Shown here piece by piece: positions 498 to 19,581 of a DNA stretch of 64,000 nucleotides. The stretch covers positions 2,074 to 66,073 of the forward strand of contig JBCCXL010000025.1 of NCBI GenBank assembly GCA_039191605.1, read 5' to 3'. A program made the position numbers and the translations under genes. This stretch comes from Acidobacteriota bacterium. GTDB taxonomy: Bacteria; Acidobacteriota; Thermoanaerobaculia; Multivoradales; JAHZIX01. Below the pieces are notes generated by a model. That model saw only the letters and a list, made by a program, of their open reading frames with translations. It was not told the DNA's origin and did not search any database. How positions within the stretch are numbered: the first letter of the stretch is position 1; every line of letters begins with the position of its first letter.

Positions 498-660
498 CCC
501 TACCTCTCGCTTGATCGGGGTCTCGCTGCTTCATTTTTGGGCCTCACTGCCCCTGATCTAGGGCCTTGCTGACTTTTCCTCGGCCTCCATTTGCCGCTGG
601 GAGCATCGCTTTGCCCTTCGCGCCTCTCGGTGAGCGGTGGTCTTCCTCTGTCGTGGTGGG

Positions 661-709
661 CTGAGCTGTGCGGGTTGAGCTGTGCGGGTTGAGCTGTGTG
701 GGTTGAAGG
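661..709. repeat. 14-nt tandem repeat, 3.5 copies
   Basis: Read directly: ctgagctgtgcggg ttgagctgtgcggg ttgagctgtgtggg ttgaagg, head to tail, in the spacer after the bEBP gene. Confidence 0.9.
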
Positions 710-9199: not shown

Positions 9200-9286
9200 G
9201 AACCTCAACTTTCCAAGTCTGACTTCAACCATCCAACTGATCCGGGCTCCTGAACACACATGGGCTCATCGAAAGGAGGCACAACC

Positions 9287-10126
9287 ATGTCGAATCACCT
9301 GCAAAGCGTCGCGGCCCGTGTCGCGGTCGCGGCGCTCCTCGCCCTCGCTTTGATCGCCGTTCCCGTGGCGGCGGAGAAGCTGGAATTCAAAGACCCCACC
9401 GGGGATGACAACGGACCGGGGGAATACGTCTATCCCACCGATGCGGTGTACAACCCGGGCTCCTTCGACCTCACCGGTCTGTCGGTGAAGACCAAGGGCA
9501 AGAACGTCGACTTCTCGGTGGACCTCAACACCCGCCTAGAAGATCCCTGGAACATGGGCACCGGTTTCTCGGTGCAGATGATCTTCATCTTCATCGACAC
9601 CGACGGGGAAGAGGGCAGCGGCAATACCGAGACGCTGCCGGGTCTGAACGTCGAGTTCGCCCCCTATCACGCCTGGGACAAGGTGGTGATCCTCTCGCCC
9701 CAGGGCGCTTCTCGGGTCAAGACCGAGGTGGAGCAGAAGGTCGCTGATCTCGCCGGGGACATCGTGATTCCCGGTCGAGTCAAGGGCGTCAACCGCAGCA
9801 TCAGCGCTCGCGTGAAGCTCGAAGAGCTCGGTGGCGGCGATCCGTCTACCTGGGGCTACCAGGTGTTGGTGCAGTCCAACGAGGGCTTCCCCAGCGGCGG
9901 CGATCTGCTGACCCGCAAGGTCAATGAATTCGAGGGCCAGCACCGTTTCGGTGGCGGCAACGACTACGACTGCGACCCCCACGTCGTGGACATTCTCGCC
10001 GGCAGCGGCAGCGGCAGCGACGACGAAGTCGCCGCCCAGCACGCGCAGCTGGCCTATGAGTGCGATGCCGAGGGCAACGCAAGCAAGCGAGCGACTTTGA
10101 CCACCGTCCGCAAGTCCGCGGACTGA
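9287..10126 (+). CDS. secreted Glucodextran_C-like (glucan/cell-surface binding module) protein, paralog 1
   Basis: AAAGGAGG Shine-Dalgarno 7 nt before ATG 9287; signal peptide. The motif string DPTGDDNGPGEYVYPTD...GSFDLTGLSV...FSVQMIFIFIDTDGEEGSG...LPG...WDKVVILSP...FGGGNDY...PHVVDIL matches what I recall of Pfam Glucodextran_C (PF09985). Confidence 0.7.
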   Translation: MSNHLQSVAARVAVAALLALALIAVPVAAEKLEFKDPTGDDNGPGEYVYPTDAVYNPGSFDLTGLSVKTKGKNVDFSVDLNTRLEDPWNMGTGFSVQMIFIFIDTDGEEGSGNTETLPGLNVEFAPYHAWDKVVILSPQGASRVKTEVEQKVADLAGDIVIPGRVKGVNRSISARVKLEELGGGDPSTWGYQVLVQSNEGFPSGGDLLTRKVNEFEGQHRFGGGNDYDCDPHVVDILAGSGSGSDDEVAAQHAQLAYECDAEGNASKRATLTTVRKSAD

Positions 10127-10148
10127 TTTTTCTGGAGAGCTCAGAACG

Positions 10149-12347
10149 ATGAAAACTTCATTGCGTTTCGCCCTGGTGCTGGCGGCGGTGGCCCTGATGG
10201 CTGCCGGCTCCGCCGCCGAGGCGCAGCAGAAGCTGCAGATCGGAGGCAACGTCTACACTAAGTTCCTGTGGGGAACCGAGCGGGTGGACGGCAGTCTCTA
10301 CAACTTCACCACCATTCCCTCCGAGGGTTATGGCGACACCGGGCAGGGTACGGAGATCGAGCTTCTGCTCTCCGCCAAGGTCTCGAAGTGGGTGGAGATC
10401 AGCGGTCGCCTCAAGGGCCGCTTCAACCAGAACTTCTGGACTAATTTCGGCGGCTTCGGCGGCGGCGGAGTGGGAGATCCCGGCTCCGGCGACTGCCTCG
10501 GCGGCGACTGCGGCGAATTCGATTCCCGCTCTGCTCAATACCTCAAGGTACGCGGCATGACGGTGCTGCTGACCCCCGGCTACAGCTGGGTGGACACCAT
10601 CACCATCGGCTCGTCGGATTTCGGGATGTTCAACCCCATGGTCCACGGCAAGATCCGCTTCATCGACCGCGACAACGGCTCCGGGATCATCTTCCAGGGT
10701 TCCAACGCCGACCGCTCGGTGACCTATGACTTCACCCGCTTCTCCCTGCCTCGCCTATGGGCCGGTCCTGAGTTCGATACCGGCGACTTCGCGGCTCTCG
10801 ACTCCGCCTACACCCTGCAGCTGGGTATCAGTCCGTCATCGAGCTACGACCTGACCCTCATCGGAACCTACGTCAACGATACCGAGATCGACGCTAGCGA
10901 TCTCAACCTCGACGACGGCCGGGACCTGCGGGCTCGTTTCCGCAATTCGGTCTATGGCGCGGTGCTCAACGTCTACGCCAGCAACTCGGTGGATCTCGGG
11001 CTGCAGTACTACCACTCCGAGTCCCAGACCTTCAGTGACTTCGCGCCGTCCAGCTTCTTCGGCCTCTCCGGCTTCTCGCCGGTGCCGGCGGGCAAGCTCT
11101 CCGACGACGCGCTGATCGGTGATGTCGGACTCAACGATCCCTTCGGCAACGGCCTGTCCTTCAACCTGCAGTACTTCGATATCGGTTCGGATTACGTCTC
11201 TATTCTCGCCGCCCGCCGCGAGCAGGACGTGCTCCTCACCGAGGGCTTCGATGGCGCCTTTGCCTTCCCTGGCCCCAGCAACGCCGCCTTCGGCGTGTTC
11301 GGCGGCAACCCCACCCGCATCGGCTACGGCGGATGGCAGGGCAACGCCCAGCAGGTGGCCACCATCAACGTCGACAACGAGTTCACCGATTTCGACGAGC
11401 AGCTGGCGGAGACGGTGATCGGCTGGAAGGGCTTCACCTTCAACCCGGTGTACGGCTCCGGCTCCCTGGATATCTCCGCGGAGTACACCTACATCGACTA
11501 CAACACCAACTGGCAGGCCTTCGACGATCCCACCCGTCCGGTGGATTCGAGCATCTACCCGGTGCACGAGCTGGATACCGGCGTCGGCCACAACTTCCGT
11601 AGCGCCTACGCTCCCTTCCAGGAGAAGGAAACCGAGATCCTCGCCCTCAACTTCAAGTACCTACTGGATGCCGGCAAGGGCGTGGACATCTTCGGCAAGG
11701 TGAAGTTCATCGACGAGACCGACAAGCGCCTCGACGACTCGAACTTTCTGCCCTTCGCCGCCGGCGACTGCCCCGGTGGCGGCGTCGCCTGCGCCAACAA
11801 CGCCAACGCCTACAACGCGGCGGGCAACAGCACCTCGGCGATCTACGGCAACCCGCCGGTGATCACCGTCAACGGCGTGACCGGCTACCAGTGGAAGCCC
11901 TTCGACTCGCTGGCCGACGACGACCGGGACATGGACTACAAGATGTACCAGCTCGGCGCCGGCTATCAGCTCACCAACGATCTCTACGCCTCGCTGCAAT
12001 TCGAGCGCTACGACGTGGACCTGCAGGACGGCAACACCGCCTTCCAGGCCTACCAGCTCCACGAGATCGCCTCCGGTGACCACACCAAGAACAAGCTGAT
12101 CCTGAAGGCTCGCTACGTTCTCGGCGGCGCGGAGATCGGCTTCAACTACGAGTACAACGAAGGCACCTTCGACCCTGACTTCGGTACCGGCTTCGTCGTC
12201 AACTTCGCCGACGAAGGCACCGCCGCCAGCGTCAACGTGCCGGTGGGCTCGCCGGGCTTCTTCGGTCGCTTCGGCGGCTGGAACAGCCTGGCGGAGCGCG
12301 ACTTCGATCAGCAGCGCTTCAAGGCCTACGTCAAGGTCCAGTTCTAA
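10149..12347 (+). CDS. outer-membrane beta-barrel protein (large porin-like), family not recognised
   Basis: Signal peptide MKTSLRFALVLAAVALMAAGSAAEA. Gly/Tyr/Asn/Asp-rich alternating pattern throughout. The C-terminus ...RFKAYVKVQF ends in Phe, as in BAM substrates. Confidence 0.7.
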   Translation: MKTSLRFALVLAAVALMAAGSAAEAQQKLQIGGNVYTKFLWGTERVDGSLYNFTTIPSEGYGDTGQGTEIELLLSAKVSKWVEISGRLKGRFNQNFWTNFGGFGGGGVGDPGSGDCLGGDCGEFDSRSAQYLKVRGMTVLLTPGYSWVDTITIGSSDFGMFNPMVHGKIRFIDRDNGSGIIFQGSNADRSVTYDFTRFSLPRLWAGPEFDTGDFAALDSAYTLQLGISPSSSYDLTLIGTYVNDTEIDASDLNLDDGRDLRARFRNSVYGAVLNVYASNSVDLGLQYYHSESQTFSDFAPSSFFGLSGFSPVPAGKLSDDALIGDVGLNDPFGNGLSFNLQYFDIGSDYVSILAARREQDVLLTEGFDGAFAFPGPSNAAFGVFGGNPTRIGYGGWQGNAQQVATINVDNEFTDFDEQLAETVIGWKGFTFNPVYGSGSLDISAEYTYIDYNTNWQAFDDPTRPVDSSIYPVHELDTGVGHNFRSAYAPFQEKETEILALNFKYLLDAGKGVDIFGKVKFIDETDKRLDDSNFLPFAAGDCPGGGVACANNANAYNAAGNSTSAIYGNPPVITVNGVTGYQWKPFDSLADDDRDMDYKMYQLGAGYQLTNDLYASLQFERYDVDLQDGNTAFQAYQLHEIASGDHTKNKLILKARYVLGGAEIGFNYEYNEGTFDPDFGTGFVVNFADEGTAASVNVPVGSPGFFGRFGGWNSLAERDFDQQRFKAYVKVQF

Positions 12348-12483
12348 GCGGACCAACTCATCGGCTCGGGCCTCGAGGGGGCCCGGGTCGGTGACCGTCG
12401 ACGGTGGAGATCCTGCCGTCGGCGCAACCCCGTCTCCCGCTCTGGCCCTGGGCCGGGCGGGGGCTTCCCCTCGGGATTTTTCT

Positions 12484-12520
12484 GGCCTGACTGTATCGGC
12501 CTGACTGTATCGGCCTGACT
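12484..12520. repeat. 14-nt tandem repeat GGCCTGACTGTATC, 2.6 copies
   Basis: Read directly: ggcctgactgtatc ggcctgactgtatc ggcctgact, ~65 nt upstream of ATG 12584. Confidence 0.9.
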
Positions 12521-12583
12521 TTGCGGGCCCTGCTCTACCGGCTGTGGGCCCATCGAAACCACGACGCTTTGGGAGAAACCGTC

Positions 12584-13720
12584 ATGACTCGTTCTTCTCG
12601 CCTCGCTAGCTTACGCCTCGATCGCTGGACTCTGGGAGTCGCGCGACCGAGCTTCGGTCTCGTCGCCCTCGTGCTGCTGATTCTCGGATCTTTCGCCCTC
12701 GCCACGCCGGCGGCGGCGGATCGCGACGATGTCTTCTTCAAGATCACCGATCCCCGGGGCGATGACCACGGCGACGGCAGCCTGACCTATCCCATCTCTC
12801 CGGAGTTCAACGAAGGGGAGCTGGATCTCATCGAGCTCACCGCCAAGGCCGCCAAGGGCGGCACGGAATTCCAGGCGATCTTCGCTGAGCCGATCCGCCG
12901 GCCCCGCCGGGTGGCGGTGGACGCCACCGGGGTAAGCCTCTCGGACGTCGCCCGCTTCGGCTTCTACACCTTCAACATCGACATCTACATCGACACCGAT
13001 CGCGAGCCGGGCTCCGGCGCGGTGCAGACCCTGCCGGGGCGCCGGGCGGAGCTGGATGCCGGCCACGCCTGGGAGAAGGTGGTGGCCCTGACCCCCCGCC
13101 CCCACGCCGCCCGCGGACAGCTGCAGCGGCTGATGATCAAGTCCCTGGAGCGCTCCATGGCGACCACCGGCGAGGCCTCTACCGAGGTAGAGATCTCCGA
13201 GGTCAAGACGGTGGTGCCGGACGAGGTCGGCCGCCACGTCTTCTTCCCCACCCGGGTGCGGGTTTCCGGCTCGAAGGTGCGCTTCTTCGTGCCGGATAGC
13301 TTCCTCGGTGGTCCGGCCCAGGACGATTGGAGCTACACCGTGGTGGTCTCCGGCTCCGACCTGCTGCCCTCCTTCGAGCTCGGCGCAGCCCTCGGCCTCG
13401 GCGAGGCTGGCGAGCCCAACCTGATGGTGCTGCAGCGGGAAGAGGGGCGCAACCAGCTGACCTTCGGCGGCGGTACCGACAACCACAACCTCGAGACCCC
13501 CATCGTCGACATCATCGCTCCCCCGGAGCAGCGCCAGGAGCGTATGCTGCGCTCCTACAACCCGCGCACCGGAGAGCCGGTTCGACTGTCCGGCGTAGTG
13601 CCGGCCCAGGGCGATGAGCGCCCGGCCCGCTACGCCGCGCCGACCGCTCCCCAACAGGCTCCGGAAGTCTCCTCGAAGTCCGAGCGCGAGGACGACGATG
13701 CCGTCGGAGAGGTGCGCTGA
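12584..13720 (+). CDS. secreted Glucodextran_C-like protein, paralog 2
   Basis: GGGAGA Shine-Dalgarno before ATG 12584; TM/signal segment. DPRGDDHGDGSLTYP...GELDLIELT...FYTFNIDIYIDTDREPGSG...LPGRRAEL...WEKVVALTP...FGGGTDN...PIVDIIA aligns with paralogs 1 and 3. Confidence 0.65.
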   Translation: MTRSSRLASLRLDRWTLGVARPSFGLVALVLLILGSFALATPAAADRDDVFFKITDPRGDDHGDGSLTYPISPEFNEGELDLIELTAKAAKGGTEFQAIFAEPIRRPRRVAVDATGVSLSDVARFGFYTFNIDIYIDTDREPGSGAVQTLPGRRAELDAGHAWEKVVALTPRPHAARGQLQRLMIKSLERSMATTGEASTEVEISEVKTVVPDEVGRHVFFPTRVRVSGSKVRFFVPDSFLGGPAQDDWSYTVVVSGSDLLPSFELGAALGLGEAGEPNLMVLQREEGRNQLTFGGGTDNHNLETPIVDIIAPPEQRQERMLRSYNPRTGEPVRLSGVVPAQGDERPARYAAPTAPQQAPEVSSKSEREDDDAVGEVR

Positions 13721-14130
13721 TCCTAGGGTCTGAAGGGTCCCAACAAGCCCCGAGGGCGTGAGATTCAGCGGATGCCGGGCTGAGCCGGCCTGATGCTGGA
13801 TTTCCTTCTCGTCCTCAGTCTCGACTCGGGAAAATTCTCGCTCTCCCAACGCGAGTGGGGTGGAAGGAGCGGCGCCATGGCGCGGCGCTCCTTCCACCCA
13901 TCGTTTCGATTCGTCGCCTCGGGACTGAGCCGCGGCATGTTCGTGGAGCACTTCGTCGGACGTGCCTCGTGGCAGGTCTCGCCGGATTTCTTGCCGAATG
14001 TGTCGCCGGAGTGGGCTGATAGCCTCACGGGGCGAACCTCGGGGGGGCGCCGGACGGACTCGCTGGCCGAGCTGGCTCTAGCAACTCGCTGGACGGGGAG
14101 ACGAGCATTTCGTGGAAAGGAGCGCGGCTC

Positions 14131-15267
14131 ATGAAGCGATTTGGAGTCGGTGGGGGAAGCCCGCGGAGAGGGCTGCTGGGAAACGAGAACGTTGGGTTGA
14201 GGCCGCTAGGCTGGTGGGCTCTCTTCGCCGCCCTGGCGCTGATTGCCGTCGCTACCCTTCCGGTGTTGACGCAGGGAGAGGAGAAAGAGGGGGATCGGAA
14301 GGGAGAGATCTTCGCCGTCGCCGATCCTTACGGAGATGACTTTGGCGCCGGGGAGCTGGTCTACCCGCTGCGGGAAGGGTGGGGGCGTGGAGATCTCGAC
14401 CTGCTGCGCTTCAGCGCGAGTCGGGTGGACGGCGGAACCCGCTTCGAGGCCCGGCTGGCGAGGTCGATTCGGGCGCCGATGCGCCGCGCCGTGGACTTCA
14501 CCGGGATCCAGGAGACGGATATCGCCCGTCTTCCCTTCTATACCTTCAATCTAGACGCCTATATCGACACCTCCGGCAGCGAAGGGGAGGAAGCCCTGGA
14601 AGGATGGGGCGGGGAGCGGGCGATGATGCCGGGAAGGCTGGCGGAGCTGCCGCCGGGGGCCGGCTGGGAAAAGGCCGTGATCCTCACTCCGGCGCCGGCT
14701 CAGGCCCGAGGGGAGCTGGTGCGCACCGTCGCGGCGGCGCTGGAGGACGATCCCGGAACCAGCTTCTCTCATTGGCTGCAGTCTCCGGGGCAATCTCCGG
14801 GGCAGGCGCCGAGCCCGCTGCCCACCGGGCGCCAGCTGCGTCGGGCGGTGGAAGAGGCGCTGAGCCAGCGGGTGCATTTCCCTCAGCAGGTGCACGTCCG
14901 CGGCCGGGAGATCACCTTCTTCGTGCCTGACTCCTTCCTCGGCGGCGCGGCGAGGGCGGAGTGGGGTTACGTGGTGGTGATCACCGGGGCCGAGCTGCAG
15001 CAGCGGGTGAAGATCCCGCTGCTGGCGCCCTACACCCGTCCCGAGAGCGCCGGCCTCGCCATGCCGGTAGTTTCCGGCCGGTCGAAGGACGCCTTCGGCG
15101 GCGGAGCGTGGGATCAACCCCTCCAGCCTTGGTTGATCGACATCCTGGAGGGACCCGGCGCCGATCAGGGAGCGATCTTGCGCAGCTTCGACCCCACCGC
15201 CGGCACCCTGGCGAGAGTGCCACCGGTGGTGCCCGCGATCCTGCCGGCTGCCGATCCCGAAGACTAG
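14131..15267 (+). CDS. secreted Glucodextran_C-like protein, paralog 3
   Basis: GGAAAGGAG Shine-Dalgarno before ATG 14131; signal/TM segment. DPYGDDFGAGELVYP...GDLDLLRFS...FYTFNLDAYIDTSGSEGEE...GRLAEL...WEKAVILTP...FGGGAWD...PWLIDIL. Closest to paralog 2. Confidence 0.65.
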   Translation: MKRFGVGGGSPRRGLLGNENVGLRPLGWWALFAALALIAVATLPVLTQGEEKEGDRKGEIFAVADPYGDDFGAGELVYPLREGWGRGDLDLLRFSASRVDGGTRFEARLARSIRAPMRRAVDFTGIQETDIARLPFYTFNLDAYIDTSGSEGEEALEGWGGERAMMPGRLAELPPGAGWEKAVILTPAPAQARGELVRTVAAALEDDPGTSFSHWLQSPGQSPGQAPSPLPTGRQLRRAVEEALSQRVHFPQQVHVRGREITFFVPDSFLGGAARAEWGYVVVITGAELQQRVKIPLLAPYTRPESAGLAMPVVSGRSKDAFGGGAWDQPLQPWLIDILEGPGADQGAILRSFDPTAGTLARVPPVVPAILPAADPED

Positions 15268-15285: not shown

Positions 15286-16218
15286 ATGGCCAAGGACTTC
15301 GATAGCGCCCGCCGCGCGGCGGTGATTCAGGATCTGCTCGGCGCTCTGCGGGACGAGCCGGTGGACCTGCTGCCCTTCGACGAGGTGAGGGAGAGCCTGC
15401 ACCTGCGGCACCTTGTAGACCGCGGCATCTATGAGGTGCCCCTGGACCAGGTGGTGGGCTCCTTCAACCGCACCCGGGAATTCAACCGCGCCTTCCTGCC
15501 TCGCCGCGCCGGCCAGCGGGAGCGATGGAAGCGAATCGAGGCCCTGGCGAAGGGCTCCGAGGGCTTTCCGCCGGTGGAGCTCTACAAGGTGAGAGACGCC
15601 TACTTCGTCATTGACGGGCACCACCGGATCTCCGTGCTCCGCGCCCTCGAGGCGCCGACGGTGGAAGCCTGGGTGAAGGAATTCCTGACCCCCGTGCCCC
15701 TGTCCCCGGAGGAATCCATCGAAGAGGTGGTGAGCAAGGCCGGCCTCGCCGACTTCCTCGAGGCCACCGGCCTCGACGCCAGCGCCGAAGCCAGCTACCG
15801 GACCACCGCCGCCGGCGGCTACGAGCGCCTGCTGGAGCACATCGTGGTCCACCGCCATTACCTCGGTGTCGAGCAGCAGCGGGAAATCCCGTGGCGCGAG
15901 GCGGTGAGCTCCTGGCGAGATCGCGTCTACCAGCCGGTGATCGAAGTGGTGCGGCAGCGGCGAGTATTGGAACAATTTCCCCAGCGCACCGAGACCGATC
16001 TCTACCTCTTCACCATGGACCACTGGCACCTGCTGCGAGAGCGCTACGGCGACGAGCAAGTCGACGCCCAGCGCGCCGTCCACCACCTCTCCCGCAAACG
16101 CCGTCGCCGCCAGCGCCAGGAAATGCCCTGGGTGCGCCGCAAGCTCCACGACCTCTGGCGTCAGTGGCGGGGGAGTAGCATCAGAGAATCTGAAGCCCAA
16201 CAAGAGTCAAAGAAGTAA
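15286..16218 (+). CDS. ParB/Srx-fold N-terminal domain protein with uncharacterised C-terminal domain
   Basis: YFVIDGHHRISVLRAL is the DGHHR-type ParB-like nuclease-domain signature. The C-terminal half (ERLLEHIVVHRHYLGVEQQREIPW...) resembles a DUF I cannot name with certainty. Basic tail. Confidence 0.6.
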   Translation: MAKDFDSARRAAVIQDLLGALRDEPVDLLPFDEVRESLHLRHLVDRGIYEVPLDQVVGSFNRTREFNRAFLPRRAGQRERWKRIEALAKGSEGFPPVELYKVRDAYFVIDGHHRISVLRALEAPTVEAWVKEFLTPVPLSPEESIEEVVSKAGLADFLEATGLDASAEASYRTTAAGGYERLLEHIVVHRHYLGVEQQREIPWREAVSSWRDRVYQPVIEVVRQRRVLEQFPQRTETDLYLFTMDHWHLLRERYGDEQVDAQRAVHHLSRKRRRRQRQEMPWVRRKLHDLWRQWRGSSIRESEAQQESKK

Positions 16219-16482
16219 GTATGTCGGTGATTGATCGCTACTCACGAGTCTCGCTTTGATGGCGAAGCGGTTTAAGGTCCACCTAGATTCTTGTGATTTA
16301 TTATTGCGGCTTTGAGGGTCTAGCCATATAGATGGTGGCTGTCCATTCTCCGGCTTGAATCCGTTCTGCCGGGGCCTGACGGTTATGATGAGTGAAGGGT
16401 CGGCTTTTTGTATTGTGGATCTTGCAGCAGCTATGTTTTTATTTGAGGAGTGACTAGAATCTTATTGATTAGGGGGATTTAG

Positions 16483-18600
16483 ATGATGGGATCAGGGTTA
16501 CCCAAGATAGGAGTCGTTGGTTTAGGCGCTTATTATTCGAAGCTGGCTCCGTGGCTGGTGGGTAAATTTGATCAAGTAGCTTTGATAGATGCCCGGGCAG
16601 AAGTGCAAGAAACTCTGGCGGGTTCTATGCGGGGAAGGTTTACATGGGCAATGGATCCGGAGTGTATTGCCGAGAGATTGTCTAGAGCGAACCCGGATGG
16701 AGTGTTGCTTCTCATTCCCCCGGAGTCTTTCCAGGCGATCGCATTACCAATAGTTCAGCGAGGCCTGCGAGTCCTGCTGGAGAAGCCTTTTTGCCGTGAC
16801 GGGTTGGACCTCGAGAGGATTCTGGAAGAGCTGCGCTCCCCTGACCAAATTCTCTTTTCAGACTACTACCGAGATGTTCGATCTTTGCCGCTCATGTCCC
16901 TTTGCCAAGGCAATACTCTGACTTCATTGGAACGCTCCTTCGTGAAGAAGGCCAGCGCAGAAAGTCTTGAGCCGGGGGGCGATCTCACAGCGGTTACCAA
17001 AATCATCGGTCGGCTCAACGAGAGAGCTCCCTTCATCAATGGGGAGTGGCGCTCAGAGGCCGAGGGGGGTGGCGTGGTTCGCGACCTGATGGTTCACTTA
17101 CTCGCGGTGATCCAGCGCCTCTTTCCTGACCGATGGTTGAGGCCCAGGGAGGTCGTGTTGACTCAGCCAAGTCATGCCAGAGCGGAATCGCGTGCCAGGG
17201 TCATCGGGCACCTAGTGCCTGGTGGTCTGCAGATTGACCTAGAAGTTCAAAAAGGTGCGGTGAAGAGCCAAAGACATTTGACATTGCTCGGACCGGACTT
17301 TTCGCTGCGGCAATCCTTCGATGATCGCCACGAGGCGTATCTGGAGAGAAAAGGGAAGCGATTGATGCTAGCGGAGCTCGCCGGCAACCATTATGAGTTG
17401 AGTGCAGCCTTGTGGCGGTGCTGGTTGGACAATTCAGCCATTTCCGTAGGCCCTAGGGATTGTCGCGAGATCGTCTCAATCCTAGATTTGATTCGGCTCT
17501 CAGGCGAGCGGCTTGTGACAAGAAGGACGCCGGCTAGCGGGGAGGTGCTAGTGCGAGTTATCGATAAGCCTCATGAGAGAGAACAGCGAACAGTATTTCC
17601 CGTGACCAGTGTATGCACGATTCCTGCTACTGCAGATCATGATGAGAACAAGTCCCCGGATTGGCTTCTGGAGAGCGAATCCCGCGTGCTCGACAGTCTG
17701 AACACCAGAGCCGATGAGATGCTGGATTCTCTCGGCCCTCAGGAGGCTCGAATGGAGGTTCTGAGGCGTCACTTCTTCTACGAAGATTGGGATCGGAAAA
17801 TTGTTCCCCGTACGATTGTTCCGCCAGTGGCGTCCTACGTCGAGAAAGTCGGTAGTCGCGGAAAGAACTATGGTCACTTGACGTTCCCCCATGAGGCTGC
17901 CGGAATGGCAGCATTCAAGGCGATCGCCGGAAATCAATCGGACAAGATTCTTGTAGGGGAGTCTTATAAGGAGCTTGCAGATCAGAGAACGCGTTTTGTT
18001 TGCTTTGGTAGCTCGGTGGTCAACGAGCTCACTCGAATGGTTTTCCCCCTCGGCCTAGAGGGGAAGAGTGAGCTTCGGAGTCTCTTTGCGTTAGAGAAAA
18101 TTCCCTACAGAATCGTTTTGGATCGGCAGGACCCTGATGTCAAGGTGTACTCGGCGATGTTGGGTGGCGAGCGGCTGAAGAGGAGGAAAGCCATTATCGA
18201 GTCAATGCCCGGTGGTGTTTATAGAAAGCACTCATTGCCCCCTCAGGAGTATTTGTGGTCCGCTGGCCGATGGCAGGGGTGGCTGAGGCGAGATCGCCTA
18301 CTCGTCAGCAAGTTGCCGATCAACTTTGAAGGGGGCTCCTTGCTGTTGATCGAGGGAGGGCACGGAAGTGGGACCGAGGCGTTTCGGCTCCTTCTGAGCG
18401 AGAAGGCCTTCGATCCTCTCGCTTTGTCGGAGCTGAACCGGCTCCTCATCGGTTGGCGGTACTTCCAAATTGTCTTCGAGGTCGAGGACATCCGGCATGA
18501 GAAGGCTGGTAGCTCTCCACGCCATCTGAGGGTTTCATCGGATCTTCCGCCTCGGCAAGTACACCTATCGAAAGAGCTCTTGCCTTTTTGGAATAGTTAG
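16483..18600 (+). CDS. 705-aa fusion protein: N-terminal Gfo/Idh/MocA-type NAD(P)-binding Rossmann domain plus unknown C-terminal domain (possibly SLOG/LOG-like Rossmannoid)
   Basis: GGGGGA Shine-Dalgarno 7 nt before the ATG. The N-terminus KIGVVGLGAYYSKLAPWL...VALIDAR...PDGVLLLIPPESFQAIALPIVQRGLRVLLEKPF is the classic GFO_IDH_MocA pattern. The C-terminal ~340 aa has a strand/Gly-loop pattern (FVCFGSSVVNEL ... LLLIEGGHGSGTEAFRLLL). No family was recognised. Confidence 0.75.
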   Translation: MMGSGLPKIGVVGLGAYYSKLAPWLVGKFDQVALIDARAEVQETLAGSMRGRFTWAMDPECIAERLSRANPDGVLLLIPPESFQAIALPIVQRGLRVLLEKPFCRDGLDLERILEELRSPDQILFSDYYRDVRSLPLMSLCQGNTLTSLERSFVKKASAESLEPGGDLTAVTKIIGRLNERAPFINGEWRSEAEGGGVVRDLMVHLLAVIQRLFPDRWLRPREVVLTQPSHARAESRARVIGHLVPGGLQIDLEVQKGAVKSQRHLTLLGPDFSLRQSFDDRHEAYLERKGKRLMLAELAGNHYELSAALWRCWLDNSAISVGPRDCREIVSILDLIRLSGERLVTRRTPASGEVLVRVIDKPHEREQRTVFPVTSVCTIPATADHDENKSPDWLLESESRVLDSLNTRADEMLDSLGPQEARMEVLRRHFFYEDWDRKIVPRTIVPPVASYVEKVGSRGKNYGHLTFPHEAAGMAAFKAIAGNQSDKILVGESYKELADQRTRFVCFGSSVVNELTRMVFPLGLEGKSELRSLFALEKIPYRIVLDRQDPDVKVYSAMLGGERLKRRKAIIESMPGGVYRKHSLPPQEYLWSAGRWQGWLRRDRLLVSKLPINFEGGSLLLIEGGHGSGTEAFRLLLSEKAFDPLALSELNRLLIGWRYFQIVFEVEDIRHEKAGSSPRHLRVSSDLPPRQVHLSKELLPFWNS

Positions 18601-18748
18601 GAGGATTCGCGGGTAACTGCATAGGCGTTCAGCTCGCTGGTCCTTGGAGAAAGGCTCAGTGCATTCGTTGACTGCGGAAAGTCCATCAGGATTCAGCAAA
18701 GCTGCTTGGACCTCGAGAGTCTCGAACAGGTGACGGAGGTTCCAGATA

Positions 18749-18799
18749 GATGGAAGGGCTAGCCAGATGGAAGTGCCAGCCAGACGGAAGGGCCAGCCA
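18749..18799. repeat. 17-nt tandem repeat, 3 copies
   Basis: gatggaagggctagcca gatggaagtgccagcca gacggaagggccagcca, between the two convergent island genes. Confidence 0.9.
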
Positions 18800-18871
18800 A
18801 ATGACCGGGCGCCGGGCGCTAGGGAAGTGCCCCAAGCCCTCTTGGGAGAGGCGATCCAGTCATGCAGCGAG

Positions 18872-19285
18872 TCATTGCTCTACCTGCCGCTTGATCCTCG
18901 CCAAGTCGATCCGTGCTGCTTCGAGCCTCGATTCGAGGCGCTCTAGCTCGGCCGTCAGAGGCCCGCTTCTGATCTTGAGGTAGACCCAGGCGACGAGGGT
19001 CATGGCGGCAAAGAAGGTGAAAACGGCGAGCAGAAATAGAGGCCAAGGCCACGGACCTTCCGCGCTTGCGACTCCGAACAGGCTCTCGTACCAAGGTACC
19101 GCCATTCGAGTGACGAAGACCGAGAATCCCACCTGGATCACCAGGATGGGGAGCACCTTCGTAAGGAACTCATCAAAGCTGTTCACCGACAGGGATTGGA
19201 TCTCTTCGATCTCTTTTTTCAGCTTCGTGCGCCTGGCATCCAGGCGCGCCACGTTTTCTCTTTTTTCTACCAGAATGTCCTTCAT
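18872..19285 (-). CDS. small membrane protein: coiled-coil, 2 TM helices, coiled-coil
   Basis: GAGGAGAG Shine-Dalgarno before ATG 19285. Charged N-terminal heptad-like stretch MKDILVEKRENVARLDARRTKLKKEIEEIQ. Hydrophobic segments VLPILVIQVGFSVFVT and WPLFLLAVFTFFAAMTLVAWVYL. C-terminal ELERLESRLEAARIDLARIKRQVEQ. Confidence 0.6.
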   Translation of the reverse strand: MKDILVEKRENVARLDARRTKLKKEIEEIQSLSVNSFDEFLTKVLPILVIQVGFSVFVTRMAVPWYESLFGVASAEGPWPWPLFLLAVFTFFAAMTLVAWVYLKIRSGPLTAELERLESRLEAARIDLARIKRQVEQ

Positions 19286-19581
19286 GCTGCACTCTCCTCG
19301 AATGAACGACGGGCCTTCCGCTAGAAGGGCTTTCAACTAGGCAGCCCCATGTCGCAATGCTGCCGGGGCCCCACTGGTTTTCTAGCATTCTGACGTTCTA
19401 GCATTTTGGTCGACTGACTCGCGGCTCTATCGGCCTGCTGATTTGTCTGCTCTGTGGTGATGATTCTCTCCCACGGCTTTCACCGACTCTTGCTTCTTGC
19501 CTGCATGCTTTTTACGTTCTGGTGTCGGGAGCGGGCTTGGGGAAAGGCTTTGAGCATCTTGCGATACGGAGTCTTTGGAGT

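Follow-up and report, generated by a model that had tools for sequence, protein, structure and literature searches.

The 64,000-nt window analysed here (the whole stretch between positions 2,074 and 66,073 of contig JBCCXL010000025.1, from an Acidobacteriota bacterium) contains an open reading frame (ORF) of 705 codons in a single unbroken frame. The encoded protein consists of a Gfo/Idh/MocA-type oxidoreductase, a disordered linker and a C-terminal module (Table 1). The module folds independently and represents a rare family that has not been described before; no relative whose structure or function is known could be detected.

The ORF is a real gene and not a chance reading frame. This follows from the existence of full-length relatives, from confident AlphaFold2 (AF2) models of both halves and from the 704-aa product that was called for the same gene in an independent (Logan) assembly, 99.99% identical over 6975 bases. 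In one public gene call the product was shortened to 552 aa by the use of an internal GTG start (V154), so that window positions 16483–16941 were cut away. This removed the whole Rossmann domain and left no precomputed Pfam domain. The long form, starting at one of two adjacent ATG codons, is favoured because of the GGGGGA sequence upstream, the in-frame Pfam match before the GTG and the 704-aa call elsewhere.

The gene lies in a low-GC island. The G + C content of the island was 0.46–0.58, versus 0.65–0.70 in both flanks, and the G + C content at third codon positions (GC3) was 0.53–0.64 in the gene and 0.80–0.88 in the neighbouring genes. Judged by this dip in GC and GC3, the gene was very probably acquired horizontally in the recent past. 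No integrase or tRNA was found within the window. As the upstream spacer of 265 nt is AT-rich and the downstream neighbour is convergent, the gene is most likely monocistronic. Scans for promoters and terminators gave results no better than those for shuffled sequence.

Two domains and an additional module

Pfam placed the N-terminal part of the protein in the Gfo/Idh/MocA family; the GFO_IDH_MocA model matched aa 8–126 with an E value of 7.8e-7 and 30.2 bits, compared with a gathering cut-off of 24. The original prediction, made by a model from the sequence, had recognised this family from a Rossmann pattern in aa ~5–120 that includes VLLEKPF. The assignment held, but the extent proved too short: the full enzyme occupies aa 1–343. 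The second domain of this half gave a weak Pfam GFO_IDH_MocA_C3 match (aa 167–216) and contains the D-x3-H motif GGGVVRDLMVH (DLMVH at aa 201–205, nt 17083–17097). NCBIfam returned only a faint match, to UDP-GlcNAc 3-dehydrogenase. In the full-length AF2 model (predicted local distance difference test, pLDDT, 83.6), aa 1–343 formed a complete two-domain Gfo/Idh/MocA fold, mostly with pLDDT >85. Foldseek matched this half over the whole chain to GnnA (7bvj; E 4e-15, template modelling (TM) score 0.81) and also to KijD10 (3rc2; TM 0.80), with inositol, levoglucosan and other sugar dehydrogenases ranking next. In the family alignment the EKP and D-x3-H (GGxxxDxxxH) motifs were intact in the window protein and in all Gfo-fused relatives. 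The dinucleotide loop reads GLGAYY (family consensus GLGDYYxK), in which the third glycine of the canonical GxGxxG is replaced. On the strength of its motifs and modelled fold, aa 1–343 form a complete oxidoreductase of the NAD(P)-dependent type, apparently with the capacity for catalysis.

The C-terminal part had been described as unrecognisable from aa ~360 onwards. It did remain without a match in any library; its start had to be moved to aa ~393, after the linker. No match to the module was found in Pfam, NCBIfam, PADLOC or PHROGs, and searches of the PDB sequences, with the single sequence as well as with a profile, gave only implausible matches (E ≥ 0.011). When modelled separately from an alignment of 32 sequences, the module gave a pLDDT of 84.6 and a predicted TM score (pTM) of 0.83. 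Foldseek with this model found no PDB fold at E ≤ 0.001 (the best match, BcsB, is discussed below) and nothing among the viral predicted folds of BFVD. The module may have a new fold. Homology within the family was strongest from aa ~440.

An ordinary dimerisation domain in the C-terminal half had been named beforehand as an outcome that would count against the original prediction. That identity was rejected, because aa 127–343 already form the Gfo C-terminal domain and the module comes in addition to it. The two stretches that had been singled out in the C-terminal half, FVCFGSSVVNEL (aa 505–516) and LLLIEGGHGSGTEAFRLLL (aa 620–638), were well chosen: they correspond to the two strand-loop-helix motifs with the highest conservation in the family (G509/S510 and G625–T631).

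Table 1. Features of the gene and its surroundings in the window, and selected features at loci of relatives (numbering within each locus)
Feature	Residues	Position (nt)	Strand	Basis
Low-GC island with Gfo-module gene and small convergent ORF		16100–19550	.	GC and GC3
Shine-Dalgarno-like GGGGGA, 5 nt 5' of ATG 16483; second ATG at 16486		16472–16477	+	704-aa call in independent assembly
705-aa ORF: Gfo/Idh/MocA oxidoreductase, disordered linker, uncharacterised C-terminal module	1–705	16483–18600	+	ORF, Pfam, homologues, AF2, independent assembly
Gfo/Idh/MocA NAD(P)-binding Rossmann domain	8–126	16504–16860	+	Pfam PF01408
GLGAYY loop	13–18		+	
VLLEKPF	97–103	16771–16791	+	
Gfo/Idh/MocA alpha/beta C-terminal (substrate/dimerisation) domain	127–343	16861–17511	+	weak Pfam C3, AF2, Foldseek, family alignment
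Disordered linker, pLDDT <50; replaces the RRxF + hydrophobic segment of relatives	344–392	17512–17658	+	AF2, alignment
Uncharacterised conserved module: two-helix N-terminal hairpin, then alpha/beta core with beta-rich insert	393–705	17659–18597	+	homologues, AF2
Module motif FPHE	468–471	17884–17895	+	alignment
Module motif FVCFGSS	505–511	from 17995	+	alignment
Module motif IPYRIV	540–545		+	alignment
Module motif DRLLVSKLP	604–612	18292–18318	+	alignment
Module motif GGHGSGT	625–631	18355–18375	+	alignment
Module motif YFQIVFEVE	660–668	18460–18486	+	alignment
Module motif PP	689–690		+	alignment
137-aa ORF inside island, two predicted transmembrane helices between N- and C-terminal coiled coils, GC3 0.72		18872–19285	-	also 137 aa in Logan assembly
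310-aa ORF		15286–16218	+	
Glucodextran_C protein		9260–10126	+	
732-aa ORF		10149–12347		
Glucodextran_C protein		12521–13720	+	
Glucodextran_C protein		14131–15267	+	
AbiU, after module-HAD pair		L001 9669–11465		PADLOC 2e-167
Type I restriction-modification methylase-specificity fusion, beside module-HAD pair		L010 9047–11170		
HerA-type ATPase, two genes upstream of Gfo-module gene		L020 2835–5006		
ParB-N6/N4 DNA methylase, near family member		L017 4433–5854		
Region like an integrative and conjugative element (ICE): serine recombinase, Replic_Relax, DUF8128		L008		
Small two-transmembrane protein, directly 3' of stand-alone module		L009 1266–1667		
Small two-transmembrane protein, directly 3' of stand-alone module		L011 3796–4254		

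The module family, its partners and its surroundings

When aa 342–705 were used to scan 1.84 billion cluster representatives exhaustively with HMMER, 74 representatives were found at E ≤ 1e-3, of which 44 at ≤ 1e-10; both counts include the query and one artefact. The artefact, P0010 (974 aa), was excluded as a family member. It consists of a perfect 62-aa repeat in 15 copies, apparently a translated 186-nt satellite, and its score versus the module (E 7e-18) arose merely from summed weak repeats. The family then comprises ~72 clusters, mostly from soil Acidobacteriota. It became visible only through the exhaustive scan: word-indexed homologue searches returned the protein itself alone, and two relatives when a profile was used. 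Matches in genomes were confined to metagenome-assembled genomes of Acidobacteriota/Terriglobia and one of Pirellulales, and the metagenome matches were largely on soil and peat contigs. The family was absent from plasmid and phage collections (tblastn) and from IMG/VR (scan).

Most members are stand-alone proteins of ~300–350 aa. The combination with a Gfo domain had been called unusual in the original prediction. It is indeed rare and undescribed; it is not a one-off, since 10 further distinct proteins have this conserved architecture (P0005, P0020, P0025, P0033/L018, P0036, P0039, P0056, L013/14, L019 and L020/21). The Gfo-fused relatives have the subfamily motifs GLGDYYxK, SDFYxDVR and YGWxW in common. 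Further N-terminal fusion partners were PNP_UDP_1 (P0015, P0053), a defence-type TIR (P0074), Trans_reg_C, a winged helix-turn-helix (wHTH) domain (P0055), HTH_XRE (P0058), the anti-sigma domain zf-HC2 together with a twin-arginine translocation (Tat)-like segment (P0071) and AAA_33, a kinase-like P-loop domain (L006). The gene of P0075 comes after a sigma-70-like gene and is located in an ICE-like element. Stand-alone modules have recurrent neighbours as well. A HAD_2 hydrolase gene overlaps or abuts the 3' end of the module gene in five distinct loci (L001–L004, L010), and a different, PNK3P/GmhB-like HAD is encoded upstream in L011 and L012. In L009 and L011 the module gene is directly followed by a gene for a conserved small protein of 133–152 aa with two transmembrane segments and the motif YxKWxNDEITRYRNxEWRI, which matched no Pfam family; the gene order in L011 is HAD, module, two-transmembrane protein and phosphoglucomutase/phosphomannomutase (PGM/PMM).

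Topology was examined by hydropathy and a regular-expression scan. In 9 of the 11 distinct Gfo-fused proteins (P0005, P0020, P0033, P0036, P0039, P0056, L013, L019 and L020) an RRx[FL] motif followed by ~20 moderately hydrophobic residues stands right before the module. The same segment was found in PNP, anti-sigma and other forms, further examples being P0002, P0004, P0007, P0014, P0018, P0047, P0051 and P0071–P0073. In fused forms it is internal and comes after a folded cytoplasmic domain; in many stand-alone members it is N-terminal and resembles a classic Tat signal (SRRNLFG, SRRRFIKAGAA and TRRSFIVGL), and in P0071 the Pfam Tat-signal model scored beside the anti-sigma zinc finger. The segment of the relatives may be an internal Tat-type anchor. 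Tat-dependent internal anchors occur in some actinobacterial Rieske proteins, and together with the positive-inside rule this suggests that in the anchored relatives the module is exported or membrane-anchored and the N-terminal domain cytoplasmic. No twin-arginine motif with a hydrophobic segment was present in aa 342–440 of the window protein, where the disordered linker takes its place. P0025 and the HAD-linked stand-alone forms are likewise without it.

In an alignment of ~95 sequences, G509, Y542, D604, P612, G625, H627, G628 and Q662 were invariant or nearly so, and R423, H470, D/E471, S510, S557, T631 and E666 were conserved in >80%. All of these were retained by the window protein and by each of the enzyme-linked classes (Gfo, PNP, AAA_33 and HAD-adjacent). 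Replacements were found in the regulator-linked classes: H627F and E666V in both anti-sigma types, and H470N, T631I and E666H in the wHTH type. Because the residues are kept in the former classes and degraded in the latter, the pattern fits a functional, probably catalytic, pocket that would have turned into a pseudo-enzyme sensor in the regulators.

Neighbourhoods were counted in 13 distinct loci with usable flanks. Genes for defence or mobile-element functions (Table 1) were found in 3–5 of these, an enrichment that is no more than suggestive. The surroundings were ordinary in the remaining loci (~8 of 13), with permeases, GGDEF proteins, melibiase, PGM and ABC-2 transporters. Among the neighbours in the window no recognised defence genes were found, and neither the window protein nor a stand-alone module matched any family of PADLOC-DB v2.

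Beside the Gfo-module gene, the island contains the 137-aa ORF listed in Table 1. Its product had no Pfam, PADLOC or PHROG family and no similarity to the two-transmembrane proteins of L009 and L011. As it is convergent, it is not co-transcribed with the Gfo-module gene, and no functional link between the two is claimed. The spacer between them contains a 17-nt tandem repeat, AGATGGAAGGGCCAGCC (18748–18803; 3.3 copies, 84% matches). An imperfect direct repeat of 21 nt at both edges of the island (16308–16328 and 19546–19566, 81% identity) could mark an insertion and is statistically weak; as a pair of attachment sites it was dropped, because a 9-mer seed is expected many times by chance in 4.2 kb. 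Directly 5' of the island, at normal GC, lies the 310-aa ORF with a ParB/Srx-like DGHHR motif; it had a ParB-like PHROG match only (E 1.8e-5) and no Pfam match. Further upstream, three paralogous SLH-like Glucodextran_C surface-binding proteins are encoded, and among them a 732-aa protein with a signal-like hydrophobic N-terminus and no Pfam match. This region (9260–15267, + strand) may be a cell-surface gene cluster. Other neighbours in the window are a Cupin_6/AraC regulator, two M16 peptidases and LexA.

Possible function and comparison with known systems

The reading that we favour, and to which we would give slightly less than an even chance, is that the window protein is a bifunctional enzyme for two linked steps on one sugar-phosphate or nucleoside/nucleotide-type metabolite. 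The polar pocket of the module (R423, H470, D/E471, S510, Y542, S557, D604, H627, T631, Q662 and E666) would bind a small molecule of this type and would probably transform it chemically. The tethered Gfo domain would oxidise or reduce a hydroxyl or keto group either of this molecule or of the product formed from it, so that two consecutive steps of one small-molecule conversion would be combined in a single protein. In the relatives, a HAD phosphatase, a PNP-type nucleosidase or phosphorylase, a kinase-like P-loop domain or a TIR domain would take over the second activity. Most relatives would be membrane-held or exported by means of the twin-arginine and hydrophobic segment; the window copy would have lost this segment and would be soluble and cytoplasmic. 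A small-molecule pocket is inferred from the conserved polar residues and from the partners, which comprise two HAD lineages, PNP, P-loop, TIR, Gfo and a neighbouring PGM. The conversion could have a role in specialised metabolism, in signalling or in defence.

Several observations argue against two coupled catalytic steps. In the full-length model (pTM 0.52) the two halves had no fixed contact or mutual arrangement. Neither the libraries nor the fold matches indicated a chemistry for the module, and no substrate, ligand or reaction can be named. The regulator-linked classes, on which the contrast in conserved residues depends, number 1–2 sequences each, and the gathering of these residues into one pocket is assumed. 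If the twin-arginine segment does export the module, the latter would face the Gfo domain across the membrane in most relatives, and a receptor/output design fits such an arrangement better than two catalytic steps. In addition, the TIR and PNP partners and the defence or mobile-element neighbours point toward conflict systems rather than metabolism.

This last argument leads to an alternative that we consider rather unlikely, namely that the protein is a single-protein immune device. The module would sense an infection cue or a nucleotide-derived signal, in a SLOG- or SAVED-like though not homologous manner, and the N-terminal domain (Gfo here; TIR, PNP or P-loop in relatives) would act as effector by depleting or altering NAD(P) or nucleotide-sugars. 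The TIR domain of P0074 matched defence TIRs (PDC-S66 at 4.7e-33, RT-TIR and ThsB), one PNP partner resembles the PN effector of CBASS (cyclic oligonucleotide-based antiphage signalling systems), and AbiU in L001, HerA in L020, the restriction-modification gene in L010, the ParB-methylase near L017 and the ICE-like setting of P0075 are consistent with such a function. So are the low GC of the window copy, a horizontally acquired singleton, the patchy and rare distribution of the family and the small two-transmembrane proteins encoded after the module in L009 and L011, with a different one located beside the window module. However, no PADLOC or PHROG model matched the module, no family member occurs in the phage, plasmid and IMG/VR collections, and about eight of the 13 loci are ordinary, as is the window with its AraC regulator, M16 peptidases and LexA; the 3–5 defence-associated loci are suggestive only. 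A literature search gave nothing relevant on Gfo/Idh/MocA proteins in phage defence or on this combination of partners, and no paper was found in which such a protein is an immune effector. The loss of pocket residues in the regulator-fused forms is also contrary to a pure ligand-sensor role. A related proposal, which we hold to be unlikely and somewhat more so, is that the module has a new fold and represents a new receptor-like class, inserted into the membrane in most cases by an internal twin-arginine anchor, in which a constant sensor/enzyme domain would drive interchangeable cytoplasmic outputs (TIR, PNP, Gfo, kinase-like P-loop and anti-sigma/wHTH). Such proteins would form a new family of single-protein devices for immunity or signalling. 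The window gene would then encode a soluble variant, and a Gfo/Idh/MocA domain would for the first time serve as effector.

Less probable again is an envelope-associated function, in which the module would be ancestrally extracytoplasmic (Tat-exported or Tat-anchored), possibly glycan- or envelope-binding, and connected by a single pass to cytoplasmic enzymes or regulators, the anchor-less window copy being a derived and perhaps decaying cytoplasmic variant. The RRxF/L and ~20-aa hydrophobic stretch before the module in most Gfo-fused, other and many stand-alone forms argues for it, as do the Tat-signal match of P0071 beside its anti-sigma zinc finger and the position of P0075 after a sigma-70-like gene. 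The sole weak fold resemblance of the module is to the periplasmic BcsB, the Gfo half resembles nucleotide-sugar enzymes of envelope glycan synthesis, and three SLH-like Glucodextran_C surface proteins are encoded near the gene in the window. Yet neither the window protein nor P0025 nor any HAD-linked stand-alone member has a signal or anchor, the HAD and Gfo partners are cytoplasmic, the BcsB match is non-significant and the topology was read from hydropathy and pattern scanning alone. The remaining two explanations are essentially excluded. The original prediction had likened the C-terminal half to LOG/SLOG domains, and a divergent Rossmannoid nucleotide-binding domain of this type was considered, as both best-conserved motifs are built as strand, small-residue loop and helix, and the TIR and two-transmembrane partners recall SLOG-associated systems. 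The profile, fold and motif tests of this resemblance were negative. None of the SLOG-clan Pfam models (LOG/Lysine_decarbox, DprA, LSDAT, STALD, TPALS and YpsA) matched the window protein at E ≤ 10 or any of 60 relatives at E ≤ 0.01, and no LOG, DprA or other SLOG structure was among the top 50 Foldseek matches listed for the module model (E up to 1.7). With hhalign, the module profile reached a probability of 0.4% versus Escherichia coli PpnN (LOG) and 0.1% versus DprA, the glycine-rich loops being unaligned. Compared with GGxGTxxE, the family motif GGHGxGT[QE]AxE has two extra residues before the T, and its T and E are spaced differently. In the predicted topology the two motifs are separated by a long beta-meander insert, and the helices are too few for a three-layer Rossmannoid sandwich. 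The two-transmembrane neighbours (L009, L011 and window) matched no SLATT model, and no SMODS or cyclase was seen. SLOG/LOG membership was rejected after the Pfam, Foldseek and hhalign tests and is very improbable. The least probable explanation is an artefact, either through mis-joining of two genes by assembly or frameshift or because the module is the usual Gfo dimerisation domain. One gene caller did split off the first 153 residues, but the single frame, the independent 704-aa call, the 10 other proteins of the same architecture and the dimerisation domain at aa 127–343 rule this out.

The best annotation that any of these proteins has at present is a plain 'Gfo/Idh/MocA oxidoreductase' or 'hypothetical protein'. 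Should the module prove to be a domain of new fold with a catalytic or ligand-binding function, an unannotated family would join the domains that are combined with TIR, PNP, HAD, kinase-like and Gfo domains and with membrane regulators. Handles on its chemistry are provided by the near-invariant residues, the natural pseudo-enzyme variants in regulators, the two independent HAD partnerships and the presumably soluble window variant, expression of which should be easy. The family also bears on the question whether a Gfo-type NAD(P) enzyme can be the output of a sensor module, and its relatives would add cases of an internal Tat-like anchor between two folded domains.

Compared with known systems, the N-terminal half is closest to enzymes such as GnnA (UDP-GlcNAc 3-dehydrogenase) and KijD10 (TDP-sugar 3-ketoreductase). 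It has the same two-domain fold (TM ~0.8 over ~345 columns) and shares the Pfam Rossmann signature, the EKP lysine motif and the D-x3-H motif. It differs in having merely 14–16% identity, the loop GLG[AD]YYxK instead of GxGxxG, and the SDFYxDVR and YGWxW motifs of its own subfamily; the GnnA/KijD10-type enzymes have neither an extra C-terminal module nor a membrane segment. The best, non-significant structural neighbour of the module is BcsB, the periplasmic cellulose synthase subunit (9fmt, 6yg8; E 0.015, probability 0.77). Each joins a flavodoxin-like alpha/beta part to a beta-rich part, but with a TM score of 0.26, a root-mean-square deviation of ~12 Å and 9% identity the resemblance is no evidence of homology. 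With the LOG/SLOG superfamily (LOG/PpnN, DprA, TRPM MHR and ThsA-SLOG) the module has in common two motifs of strand, glycine-rich loop and helix, an occasional association with TIR or small two-transmembrane proteins and a possible small-molecule pocket. It is not a member, having no profile, profile-profile or fold similarity and a different motif register and predicted topology.

P0071, P0075 and P0055 have the layout of single-pass regulators (zf-HC2 anti-sigma factors and ToxR/CadC-like wHTH-transmembrane-sensor proteins), with the module at the position of the sensor. In these regulator-type members the conserved polar residues of the module are degraded, and the window protein differs in having no DNA- or sigma-binding domain and no membrane segment. 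Modular immune proteins, such as Thoeris ThsA and the CBASS Cap effectors with SAVED, likewise combine a constant sensor with a variable enzyme (TIR, PNP or SIR2 effectors). The module family similarly has a constant C-terminal module with swappable N-terminal enzymes, including defence-type TIR and PNP, and some of its loci are of the defence or mobile type. In contrast to the immune proteins, the module was unrelated to SAVED, SLOG or STING in all tests, and no partner gene for a cyclase or for the production of a signal was found. To our knowledge, Gfo, HAD and kinase-like domains have not been recognised as immune effectors. The Gfo half is thus a new member of a known family, whereas the architecture is undescribed and the module lies outside every described family with which it was compared; the family has a narrow taxonomic spread, and the window copy, having no anchor, is atypical of it.

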